NCBI GenBank assembly: GCA_028717245.1
Contig: JAQUOD010000001.1
Location: forward strand, 230,586 to 294,585
Length of the DNA stretch: 64,000 bases
Direction: 5' to 3'
Source of the DNA: Candidatus Omnitrophota bacterium
Lineage (GTDB): Bacteria; Omnitrophota; Gorgyraeia; Gygaellales; Profunditerraquicolaceae
Shown here piece by piece: positions 35,559-38,500 of this stretch. Each line of letters begins with the position of its first letter. The stretch's first letter is position 1. The position numbers were made by a program.

Positions 35559-38500
35559 TTAGATACGCCTGTATCAAAGTATCAAGTGTCAAGGTATCAA
35601 AGTCAGATTATTTTTTGACACTCTGATACACTGATACTTTGACACTAGTTGTCATTTTACTTTTCTTTTAGATATTTCGCTGCCAGTTCCGGCGGCGTGG
35701 GCACGACATAAAAACCCGAACCCCACTCAAAACCGGCGACGCGCGTTAATTTAGGCATTAATTCAATGTGCCAGTGATAATACTCTACCCCTCCATCTCC
35801 GTTAATCGGAGAAGAATGTATGATAAAATTATAAGCAGGGCTGGCAAAAATCCTTTTTATTTTAGCGATAGTCTCTCTTAATATAGCTGCCAGCTGGGGT
35901 ATTTCATCCTGTGTCATTTGATAAAAATGGCTATTATGCTTCTTAGGGATAATCCAGGTCTCAAAAGGAAAACGCGACACAAACGGACAAAATGAAAGGA
36001 AATATTTATTTTCTAATATTATCCTTTCCTTTTCCTGTGTTTCCTGCCGTATGATATCGCAGAATATACAACGTTCCCGGTAATTAAAATAATCCTGCGC
36101 CCCCTTAATTTCTTCCATCACGTTTTTAGGCACCATGGGCAGCGCAATAAGCTGGGTATGCGGATGTTCCAGCGATGCGCCGGCTGAAGGGCCGTAATTC
36201 TTAAAAAGGAGTATATATTTTAGACGCTTATCTTTTACCAGATCCGATCCCCGCCGGCAACACATAAGGATAATCTTCTCTACTTCTTCGTTTAATAAAT
36301 CCGGCAGGTCCTTATTATGATACGGCGTTTCAATGAGCACCTCATGCGCCCCTACTCCATTCGACATATCATATATACCCAGGCCTCTTCTGTCCAAATC
36401 GCCTTCAATCTGCAGCGCAGGAAATTTATTGGAAACAACGCGGACCTGCCATCCGGGGGTATTAGGCTGGGTCGAGGGGCTGCGAAAAACATCTATCTCA
36501 GGCGGGGTTGAGGCTTCGTTACCATAGCAGAAAGGACACGCACCCCCTCTCCAGATGTGCGGTTCATGTTCGAAATCTTCTGGCTTACGGGGGTTATCGG
36601 TATCTACTATGACCCATCTGCCGCCGATAGGATCCCTTCTTAATTCTGACATTTTAAACTTCAACCTCTCTTAAAAATTTTGCCGCATCTTCAGGGGGCA
36701 AAGGGCAAATGTAAAATCCCGTGCCCCATTCAAAACCGGCTACGCGGGTAAGCCGCGGCATAATCTCAATATGCCAGTGATAATCCTGGTCTATACTCTT
36801 CCAGTAACCTACCTTTTGCCGCCTAAAAGGGGCGGTATGCAAAATATAGTTGTAAGGCGGATCATTCAGGCCTTTCTTTAGTTTTGATAGGACTTTTTTC
36901 AAAATCCTGCCCAGGTTCAAACGCGCATTCATATCCATATTGGTAAAATCACAGGAATGCTTTTTAGGCAGAATCCAGACTTCAAAAGGAAACCTTGCCG
37001 CAAAGGGCGTAACGGCAATAAAACCGTCTATATCAAGGATGAGCCTATCCTTGGATTCCAGTTCCTGCCTGATCAAATCGCAAAATACGCAGCGCTCATG
37101 ATAATCGTAGTATTGCCGCGCGCCTACCAGCTCTTCCTTGACGCGTTTAGGATTAACCGGAGTAGCGATTAACTGGGAACGTGAATGCTTGAGCCTGCCG
37201 CCCCCGGCTATCCAGCCATAGTTTTTAAATACCAGGACATATTTAAAACGCCTATCTTTTTCTAAATCTGTAATCCTATCTATATAACAGGTTATCACCT
37301 TTGCCACCTGCTCTTCGCCTAAATCTGCCATATTAGCGATATGCTTATTCGTCTCTATGACAATTTCATGCGCGCCTACGCCGTTCATCATGTCATAAAG
37401 GCCCTTGCCCCTTCTGCCCAAGTCTCCTTCTATCCTTAAAAAAGGCGAGATACTCGGTACCACCCTTAATTCCCATCCCGGCTTATTGACAGGAGTAAAG
37501 TTAGGCCTTACGGCATATATTTCCGGCGGAGTCTGGGATTCGCTACCTTCGCAAAAAGGGCAGGGCTGCTCGACATAAGCCTCCTCAGCATGCCCTGAAA
37601 ATTGGTCGGGCCGCTTTGCGCGCTCAGTAGCAATAATAACCCATCTACCTATAATCGGATCTTTCCTTAGTTCAGGCATATCGAGAGATTATACCATAGC
37701 TTATTTTTTATGCAAATATTTTTTATAAAATGGAGACGAATTTTTTAATGAATCTTATTGAAAAAAATATTTAACTATTGTAAAATAGCTCAGGATGAAC
37801 CGAAATTAAAGAAACCTGTAGAGATATGAAATTTATAATGCACAGTATAATAAAAAACAATAACTCCATCTTAAAGCCATTTACTAAAAAAGATATGTAT
37901 GATTTCTACTGTGGACAAAAATTGGGTATATTTAACCCGATAGCAAAAAATATATTATATTTTTTCAACCGGCTAATCGGAAAATTTTCTAATGAAGACC
38001 GGATTAATATAGCATGCCTATGCGAACCGCCGAAGTTTTTTTTAAATAACGGGATAATGATCCCCCATGCATATGGAATCACTTTAAGTATTGACGAAAT
38101 AGGTTGTGATTGCCTTATTGGGCAAAATGTCACAATAGGAACAAATGGAAAAAATATACGTTTTAATGGATATACTACGAATCATAAAGCAAGAATAGGC
38201 AACCTAGTCAGAATATATGCTAATGCGGTAATTTCCGGAGAAATAAGAATAGGTGATTGTGTTATTGTTGCCGCATCTTCTGTTGTCACAAAAGATGTCC
38301 CGAGTAAGTCTATAGTTTATGGAAATAACCAAATTAAACCTTTATCCGCGCACCATATCGAATATTTAAAATCAGCCCTATACCACTGCTACAGTCAATA
38401 TGTAAAAATTCCCGGATTGATGTATAAGGACGAAAAGATGTATATCAATACTGAATATCTGCGCAAGCGGGTTTTATTGATTAAGAGCATGGAAACAAAT

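Follow-up and report, generated by a model that had tools for sequence, protein, structure and literature searches.

Repetitive extragenic palindromic (REP) sequences and bacterial interspersed mosaic elements (BIMEs), of which the malE-malF REP is an example, are imperfect palindromes that are transcribed between the cistrons of an operon and either block 3'-5' decay or act as sites of processing, so that mRNA levels differ from one cistron to the next. REPs are single palindromes of 20-40 nt that share one consensus across a genome and owe their mobility to REP-associated tyrosine transposases (RAYTs). PF05635, also called S23p, is the 23S rRNA intervening-sequence protein family, a four-helix bundle related to Avd. 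Here we show how an element of a Candidatus Omnitrophota genome, a palindromic array of 8-nt units in the spacer between a galT-like gene (galT1) and gap, compares with these systems and with three kinds of short tandem repeat described in the literature. The element lies in a stretch of 64,000 nt, which we call the window (GenBank assembly GCA_028717245.1, contig JAQUOD010000001.1, positions 230,586 to 294,585, forward strand), and coordinates given without a label are positions in it.

In the Coxiella 23S rRNA intervening sequence (IVS), an S23p (PF05635) open reading frame (ORF) is found together with a 28-bp terminal stem and with tandem GACAGAT heptamers in the 5' part (PMC4990558). The copy number of these heptamers varies between strains, and the cut that RNase III makes in the stem falls where the first repeat begins (PMC4990558). 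Xanthomonas genomes each hold 70-75 convergent pairs of GGGAATC heptamer arrays that are capable of forming stem-loops (Rehm et al. 2015, PMC4692102). These pairs are strongly biased toward the stop codon of the upstream ORF, show no association with phase-variable genes and vary in length between species; the unit is G-rich, forms G-quadruplexes and is present in hundreds of copies per genome, with no reported link to PF05635 and no known function (PMC4692102). TAACTGA repeats, which occur in Beggiatoaceae, Cyanobacteria and Bacteroidetes, are often placed just upstream of start codons and in some cases inside ORFs (MacGregor 2015, PMC4679880). Their unit is common to distant lineages with no known mechanism of transfer, is found in 169 direct sets versus 1 indirect set, and has been proposed to function through protein binding to single-stranded RNA (PMC4679880).

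Anatomy and predicted transcription of the galT1-gap element

The locus consists of priA (39583-41436), fmt (38559-39497), galT2 (galT-like; 36654-37679), galT1 (the second galT-like gene; 35657-36664) and gap (34524-35543, with its ATG at 35543-35541). All are gene calls on the minus strand, which is the sense strand throughout, and they bear out the names galT, gap and fmt that an earlier, sequence-only reading of this stretch had used. The spacer between galT1 and gap is 113 nt long. Within it, at 35571-35646, a T-rich centre separates four GTRTCAAR units from four units in the inverted orientation. On the plus strand, the first arm reads GTATCAAA GTATCAA GTGTCAAG GTATCAAA GTCA and is followed by the centre, GATTATTTTT, and by a second arm of inverted units, TTGACACT CTGATACA CTGATACT TTGACACT. 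Tandem Repeats Finder (TRF) reports 4.2 copies of period 8 at 35571-35603, and the four inverted units occupy 35615-35646. The palindromic array of 8-bp units that the sequence-only reading described between galT and gap is thus real and has the sequence that was given for it. One point needs correction: the genes lie on the minus strand, so that the arm named first is the 3' arm of the transcript.

Read in the direction of the transcript, the 5' arm (35615..35646, minus strand) is made of four 8-nt units, AGTGTCAA AGTATCAG TGTATCAG AGTGTCAA, and the 3' arm (35571..35605, minus strand) of the complementary units TGAC TTTGATAC CTTGACAC TTGATAC TTTGATAC. The predicted hairpin as a whole (35569..35648) has a 31-bp interrupted stem and a 12-nt A/U-rich loop at 35602-35613. 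Its placement is tight on both sides: the stem base follows the galT1 stop codon (35657..35659) by 8 nt, and the gap Shine-Dalgarno sequence AAGGAGG (35552..35558), which keeps the same spacing in relatives, lies 10 nt past the stem. Structure prediction makes this a stable stem, since the mRNA strand folds at -34.2 kcal/mol compared with -19.9 +/- 3.3 for shuffled sequences (z = -4.36). With at least three head-to-tail copies per array and complementary arrays able to form a stem-loop, the element has two of the features of long-unit (5-11 nt) repeat arrays and their inverted pairs. The spacer is identical in an independent Logan assembly (L001, SRR22315506), and a misassembly is therefore unlikely. 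(Labels of this form denote comparison loci and contigs; L082-L201 are metagenome contigs from a DNA-pattern scan.)

How common is the unit itself? RGTRTCAA matches the window 13 times where 5.4 matches are expected, and none of 100 shuffles reaches 13. Eight of the 13 matches fall in the spacer array and in a second array inside fmt, the remaining five being background; the octamer does stand above its background frequency, yet it is enriched because of these two arrays only. The double unit GTRTCAARGTRTCA (at most 2 mismatches) behaves in the same way, with 10 occurrences in the window versus 1.5 expected and nine of the 10 inside the two arrays. Over about 72 kb of genome, that is, the window and 8.4 kb beyond one of its ends, GTRTCAAR-unit arrays are found at two loci, the spacer and fmt, and the added 8.4 kb contain no arrays and no PF05635 gene.

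The element is flanked by a perfect 10-nt direct repeat, CTTTTAGATA on the plus strand and TATCTAAAAG in the sense direction, with copies at 35556..35565 and 35665-35674. One copy forms the last codons of galT1, which encode a conserved YLKEK end, and the other abuts the gap Shine-Dalgarno sequence. Set against the compact junction of L003, the insert looks like roughly 94-99 nt placed into GTAAAAGGAGG. The flanking repeat may be a target-site duplication or a case of microhomology; a true target-site duplication is doubtful because one of the copies coincides with conserved C-terminal codons of galT1.

We now consider whether the element would be transcribed. A promoter scan places a sigma-70-like operon promoter, TTTGCA-17-(TG)TATAAT (in full, TTTGCA-17-TGnTATAAT), upstream of galT2 at 37688..37716 on the minus strand, and this promoter is recognisable as TTGCAT-17-TATAAT in the fmt-galT2 spacers of L007-L010, L019 and L020. 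At the other end, a canonical intrinsic terminator with a GC-rich stem and a T-run follows gap (34481..34508, minus strand) and is kept in L202 and L204. In L019, L003 and L008 the distance from the galT1 stop to the gap ATG is only 2-22 nt, which leaves no room for a promoter of gap's own, and gap is therefore co-transcribed in these relatives. The conserved promoter before galT2, the terminator after gap and the tight junctions of relatives together indicate that galT2-galT1-gap is one transcription unit. The palindrome, which is intercistronic and about 2.1 kb downstream of the operon promoter, would then be transcribed within the galT2-galT1-gap mRNA. Signals that could interrupt this unit were not seen in the spacer: the promoter scan finds no promoter on its minus strand, and the terminator scan of 35544-35656 finds no terminator-like site on either strand and no U-tract past the stem (ACAGGCGUAUCU; ACAGGCGTATCT). 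Rfam 15 at gathering thresholds gives no match and no rRNA in the whole window, and at E<=1 the spacer gives only sub-threshold matches to long hairpins of microRNA precursors, at 18-23 bits versus gathering scores of 81-100.

The junction in relatives and the link to PF05635 genes

The gene order priA-fmt-galT2-galT1-gap is found in 12 Omnitrophota relatives and in L202. Six more loci, on shorter contigs, show the galT2-galT1-gap part only, and in L204 the same part is preceded by an incomplete ORF that reads as fmt in translation. A GTRTCAAR array is missing from the galT1-gap spacer of all 20 relatives in which this spacer was read, the closest available ones, L202 and L204 (91% identity in glyceraldehyde-3-phosphate dehydrogenase), included. 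The contigs of L203 and L205 do not reach galT1; they have no array upstream of gap. The spacers are 2-89 nt long and without stable structure in 14 of the 20, and strongly structured, with unrelated sequence, in the other six (L004, L006, L007, L011, L014, L023). In L014 a MarR gene downstream of gap is 84% identical while the spacer is completely different. A conserved operator or attenuator of gap is refuted by these two observations taken together, the lack of a conserved array in 20 relatives and the retention of the MarR gene in L014. The comparison shows instead that the galT1-gap junction repeatedly acquires hairpin-forming inserts. The element of the window is specific to its lineage, having been inserted or expanded in the final spacer between cistrons of the operon.

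A closer counterpart of the element is found around genes of the PF05635 family. Each of the 13 PF05635 genes that we found has an array of G/T-rich 7-9-nt units on its 5' side and a complementary array on its 3' side, and each of the 13 sits between co-directional housekeeping genes. They come from Omnitrophota, Planctomycetota, Acidobacteriota, Desulfobacteraceae and unclassified contigs, and the bracketing units differ by genome (RGTTC types, GTAGNTA, GTRTCARR). In L002 (2491-2921) and L003 (2507-2950), the priA-fmt spacers of about 445 nt run from a GTAGNTA array through a 120-amino-acid (aa) ORF to a CTACMTA array. A second cassette of L002 (10649-11110), whose arrays are AGTTCGCA and CGAACTAT, separates pgk from tpiA, and the cassette of L069 (Acidobacteriota; 9242-9737) has GGTTCMM and AACCGGG arrays. 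The ORFs of these cassettes match PF05635 with E values of 1e-31 to 1e-36, one of them also matching bAvd weakly. Five more homologues were found by protein identity and all are bracketed: L256 (Omnitrophota; 1974-2399), where the intervening-sequence protein (IVP) gene stands in a pgk-IVP-tpiA context; L257 (Planctomycetota; 1934-2439), with ispA-IVP-dxs; L258 (1852-2440), after hisG; L260 (Desulfobacteraceae; 1807-2516); and L262 (1888-2656), after nusG. Finally, four contigs that were found by the GTRTCAAR DNA pattern alone carry a PF05635-like gene (L099 2514-3030, L101 598-1100, L111 1110-1600, L115 100-460), with GTRTCARR units before the gene and YYTGAYAC units after it.

The scan that yielded these four contigs searched metagenome contigs for GTRTCAARGTRTCAARGTRTCA (three GTRTCAAR units) and returned at least 120 of them, with GC contents of 0.20-0.65. 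Among the matches listed, 49 palindromes have the polarity of the window element, with the GTRTCA arm first, versus 3 of the opposite polarity; the favoured order is (GTRTCAAR)n-loop-(YTTGAYAC)n and is independent of strand. The 49 palindromes of window polarity all lie outside long ORFs, with loops of mostly 7-50 nt. Where the flanking genes of the listed matches are callable, 17 are co-directional (one of these being the window element itself), 1 is convergent and 3 are divergent. As in the window, the distance from the upstream stop codon to the array is in most cases no more than about 10 nt, and some contigs carry several palindromes, an example being L178 with three in a 10.7-kb arginine-biosynthesis operon. 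In the PF05635 cassettes the G/T-rich arm is always 5' of the gene, which is also the prevailing polarity of the cargo-less palindromes (49:3 among the matches listed). From the bracketing of all 13 genes and this shared polarity, it follows that the window element is best described as a cassette stem without the gene.

We can now set the element beside the described systems. Like the 23S IVSs of Coxiella, Leptospira and Brucella it has terminal inverted repeats that form a stem (31 bp versus about 28 bp), like the Coxiella IVS in particular it has tandem units, and in both unit and polarity it matches the stems of the PF05635 cassettes in L099, L101, L111 and L115. It is unlike an IVS in having no ORF in its loop, which is 12 nt, in having arms made wholly of tandem units, and in lying in the mRNA spacer of an operon and not in helix 25 or 45 of 23S rRNA. 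With the GGGAATC pairs of Xanthomonas it shares an intergenic position, an inverted pair of arrays and proximity to a stop codon, but its unit is AT-rich and occurs at two loci in about 72 kb. The short tandemly repeated repetitive (STRR) heptamers of cyanobacteria and the TAACTGA repeats are also short tandem intergenic units, whereas the window element is palindromic. Its resemblance to REPs and BIMEs lies in being an imperfect palindrome in the intercistronic spacer of an operon; it differs from them in that its stem is a tandem array and in that the window holds one palindrome with this unit, the unit of a second palindrome at 39507-39581 being unrelated. No RAYT was seen among the ORFs near the element, to which that search was limited. 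There is also a likeness to miniature inverted-repeat transposable elements, in the inverted arms with a flanking 10-nt direct repeat and in the presumed relation of cargo-less to cargo-bearing forms, which share terminal inverted sequence (about 49 to 4 among the matches listed, in a biased sample of array-selected contigs), but the PF05635 cargo is no known transposase and the termini are tandem arrays with genome-specific units. The best reading is that the window element belongs to a known, poorly understood kind, the palindromic hairpin of long-unit simple-sequence repeats or IVS-like stem, whose class is, going by architecture, an array of 7-9-nt G/T-rich units, a short loop and an array of complementary units. 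Besides the Coxiella IVS paper we found no literature on Omnitrophota repeats or on PF05635 genes in operon spacers with tandem arrays, in a search whose coverage was incomplete and which is no proof of novelty.

Possible function and origin of the element

We take the galT1-gap element to be a cargo-less, IVS-like palindromic tandem-repeat hairpin that has its effect at the level of RNA and contains no site for a gap-specific regulator, and we would put the chances of this being right at about even. What carries this reading directly is the anatomy of the element, its predicted fold, its position between a predicted promoter and terminator, its absence in relatives, its class by architecture and the PF05635 link. 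The element would be transcribed as part of the operon mRNA, which would place a 31-bp stem between the galT1 stop and the gap ribosome-binding site. This stem is probably an RNase III substrate, as we propose from its analogy with the repeat-containing stem of the Coxiella IVS, or else a barrier to exonucleases and hence a decay boundary. Either cleavage or barrier would uncouple the gap segment of the mRNA from the galT segments, and after cleavage gap would keep the A/C/U-rich 3' arm as its leader. Cleavage by RNase III, and any effect on expression that might come of it, are suggested by this analogy. In an annotation of the locus, the tempting label of a gap operator or attenuator is removed and its place is taken by a predicted RNase III-type stem that would split the galT2-galT1-gap mRNA.

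A broader proposal, which we offer tentatively and think more likely wrong than right, concerns where such elements come from. The element could be a non-autonomous derivative of widespread, undescribed selfish PF05635 cassettes that colonise the spacers of housekeeping operons across phyla, with the cassettes at priA-fmt, pgk-tpiA, ispA-dxs, hisG and nusG as their sites. The 23S IVS would be a special case among their landing sites; the tandem-repeat stems would supply the working ends of the cassette, at which RNase III would free its RNA and the PF05635 pentamer would perhaps bind; and orphan heptamer and octamer palindromes would be footprints. The STRR, GGGAATC and TAACTGA repeats and the S23p ORFs of rRNA IVSs have been unexplained for about 30 years, and here they are found together. 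If the bracketing of PF05635 genes and the unit and polarity that their arrays share with cargo-less palindromes proved true genome-wide, intergenic heptamer and octamer repeats and S23p ORFs would have a common origin.

Several observations count against our reading of the element as an IVS-like hairpin acting on RNA. There is no further GTRTCAAR palindrome in the roughly 72 kb of genome, and a hidden Markov model search of all six frames of the window finds no PF05635-like ORF, nor is there one in the extra 8.4 kb. Any function of the element is dispensable, since the junction lacks a stable structure in 14 of the 20 relatives. In viral contigs, arrays of three composition-matched control octamers, two of which partly overlap each other by rotation, number 3, 15 and 24 versus 12 for GTRTCAAR; with controls this frequent the unit is not globally special, and the recurring feature is the architecture. 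GTRTCAAR as a universally preferred unit is ruled out by the same counts, the control arrays being about as common. Lastly, for the 18 palindromes with known gene direction the comparison of sense with antisense fold energy comes out at 10 versus 8 (p = 0.73), so that there is no G-U signature of RNA-specific selection; this test neither supports nor excludes an RNA function.

Much of this would be expected if the element were a neutral by-product, an array built by replication slippage, inverted by a template switch and tolerated in a permissive spacer with no meaningful effect on expression. An element that is in no relative, at a junction without stable structure in 14 of 20, fits such an origin, as do the very fast sequence turnover at the same positions, the even split of sense and antisense folds and the abundance of octamer arrays of arbitrary units. 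Random template switching would not, however, be expected to produce a 49:3 polarity bias among the matches listed, and neutrality sits badly with the consistent placement between co-directional genes right after stop codons, with the recurrence of arrays at the priA-fmt and galT1-gap junctions in many lineages, and with a 31-bp mRNA stem, which can hardly be invisible to RNases. We regard a neutral by-product as a serious alternative, though on balance an unlikely one. An RNA-level alternative with a protein partner is that the units form an array of single-stranded-RNA sites for a repeat-recognising protein (S1, Csp, a CsrA-like protein or an IVP/Avd-like pentamer) that controls gap translation. 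The 3' arm is indeed A/C/U-rich, periodic and immediately upstream of the gap ribosome-binding site, there is the precedent of the hypothesis for TAACTGA heptamers upstream of start codons (PMC4679880), and PF05635 genes always travel with such repeats. Against this, the complementary arms would pair with each other and not stay single-stranded, the roughly 72 kb of genome hold no PF05635 gene, and the array is not conserved in relatives, all of which makes such a site array quite improbable.

The remaining explanations make the element a control site for the transcription of gap. The sequence-only reading had offered two, a multi-site operator or iteron and an attenuator, and neither survives the comparison well. 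As an operator, the GTRTCA/TGAYAC units would be DNA sites for a dimeric or oligomeric regulator of gap, an idea that gains from a hexamer core with TGTCA and TTGACA, present several times in direct and inverted orientation, and from the MarR-family gene downstream of gap. It is scarcely credible all the same, given that the array is in 0 of 20 relatives, L014 with its 84%-identical MarR among them, that it lies inside the operon some 2.1 kb downstream of the promoter, that a period of 8 bp does not keep step with the DNA helix, and that the same unit occurs in the coding region of fmt and, in other organisms, amid unrelated genes. The CggR operator pattern of gapA operons, CGGGAC-N6-TGTC, occurs at background frequency with no copy in the spacer, and none of the nine neighbouring ORFs scanned is a SorC/DeoR-type gene. 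An attenuator, or a partial terminator that lowers galT-to-gap read-through, or a pause site for RNA polymerase, would agree with a long stable hairpin directly after a stop codon, and similar palindromes in several metagenome contigs have flanking A-runs and T-runs that make them resemble bidirectional terminators. The stem in the window is AT-rich, however, has no U-tract after it, is not picked up by the terminator scan and is absent in relatives, whereas the terminator after gap is canonical; and gap is a heavily used glycolytic gene for which no promoter of its own was detected, so that termination ahead of it would be self-defeating. We judge this explanation very improbable. It is hard to believe, too, that the element is a promoter donor whose outward TTGACA and TTGATA boxes in the 3' arm act as -35 elements for gap. 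A perfect TTGACA and several TTGATA boxes do face gap, and palindromes of this polarity have such boxes facing outward on both strands, but no hexamer at 16-18 nt downstream resembles a -10 box (in TCTAAA and CTAAAA, which come closest, the key A2 and T6 are missing), the scan finds no minus-strand promoter in the spacer, and PF05635 arrays of other units (RGTTC, GTAGNTA) have no similarity to a -35 box.

Repeats in fmt and at other junctions

The array inside fmt (38715..38751, minus strand; sense AAGTGTCA) is a perfect period-8 repeat of 4.6 copies that encodes VKVSKCQSVKVS. The sequence-only reading had the octamer and the perfection of the array right and its length wrong, giving three copies. 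The array lies in a variable loop of the C-terminal domain, between KIYxA and PGEI, and the same loop holds 8-nt repeats of other units in four of 13 relatives. Three of these are clear arrays (AAGYCACA x4.1 at L004 1937-1969, AGTTCGCA x3.6 at L011 3430-3458, and AAGTCACC blocks at about L013 3309-3365); the fourth, at about L008 3695-3727, is a looser GAGAGTAG repeat that TRF does not report. The loop segment is 29 aa long in six genomes and 37 aa in L013, which has three more units and 8 more aa. These data suggest an old or recurrent repeat site that undergoes concerted evolution and is constrained to steps of 24 nt, and the fmt array of the window is a slippage-prone 8-nt repeat in a tolerant protein loop. 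The unit of the L011 array is also the unit that brackets a PF05635 gene in L002.

No relative reuses its fmt-loop unit elsewhere in its locus of 7-13 kb, and the sharing of one unit by fmt and a spacer 3 kb away is therefore specific to this genome. By a rough estimate, the probability of such sharing by chance is on the order of 0.005-0.05, which suggests that copying, either from one of the two sites to the other or into both from a third place in the genome, is likelier than chance. Where the sequence-only reading suggested a short repeat that is mobile or prone to slippage, its interpretation is supported: arrays of 7-8-nt units are the dominant class of tandem repeat in these genomes, the fmt loop carries other 8-nt units in four relatives, and GTRTCAAR palindromes recur in metagenome contigs, where they also bracket PF05635 genes.

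The second palindromic element of the window occupies the priA-fmt spacer (39507..39581, minus strand). It has 7-nt units TAAGCCG/TAAGTTG/TAAGCCA/TAAGCCG, a loop and AGCTTAW-type units, and folds at -23.5 kcal/mol (z -2.35). In L007, L008, L009, L011, L013 and L202 the priA-fmt spacers carry palindromic or one-sided arrays of other 7-8-nt units; the palindromic tandem-repeat design is found in L008, L009, L013 and L202, with the units differing each time. Non-redundant arrays of period 7-8 detected by TRF number 14 in Omnitrophota-like loci totalling 294 kb versus about 0.4 in dinucleotide shuffles, and period 7-8 is the mode of tandem arrays in 608 kb from other phyla too. Elsewhere in the window, an ATTCGTR x5.4 array (also period 14 x2.4, perfect) is found at 57482-57519 inside a 599-aa ORF (56708-58507, minus strand) that has no Pfam match.

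Two features of the window bear on the region between fmt and galT2. Only 8 nt separate the end of the operon promoter's -10 box from the galT2 ATG (37679-37716), a spacing that is identical in L018, and the galT2 mRNA may be leaderless or nearly so. Between fmt and this promoter, a hexapeptide-repeat acetyltransferase gene is carried on the opposite strand (37826-38533, plus strand). Since the galT2 spacer comes immediately after fmt in 13 of 14 relatives whose sequence was read at this place, L006 being the exception with about 1 kb of unrelated sequence, we take the acetyltransferase gene to be a lineage-specific insertion.

Spacers of relatives and of metagenome contigs hold further repeat structures. 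A conserved pair of hairpins, GAGGCCRCAACTTAGCGA...CTAAGTTGT and ACCCAGCACTAATTTT...AAAATTAGTGCTGGGT, is present in the galT2-galT1 spacers of L004 (3338-3476), L007 (4801-4944) and L013 (4666-4936), and hairpins of the ACTTACG/ACTTAGC type recur in other spacers of L004, L007, L011, L013 and L014; the galT2-galT1 spacer hairpins look like a separate, REP-like family. Some spacers are composite, with several tandem units side by side and partly mirrored, for example [CAATAGSC]n [GTRTCARR]n [GGACAGAR]n. Such composites are found at L098 1200-1420, in L122-L125, at L170 1280-1420, at L172 200-330 and in the galT1-gap spacer of L023 (279 nt; 2765-3045), which folds at -101 kcal/mol. In a further subgroup, GTGTCAAA arrays stand 70-150 nt apart around an AT-rich palindromic core with a conserved flank, CATTCAACT...TTTCAGGG (L105 7687-7831, L112 5513-5617, L159 6370-6544, L197 4418-4560, and also L110 and L161), and this subgroup looks like a distinct repeated element.

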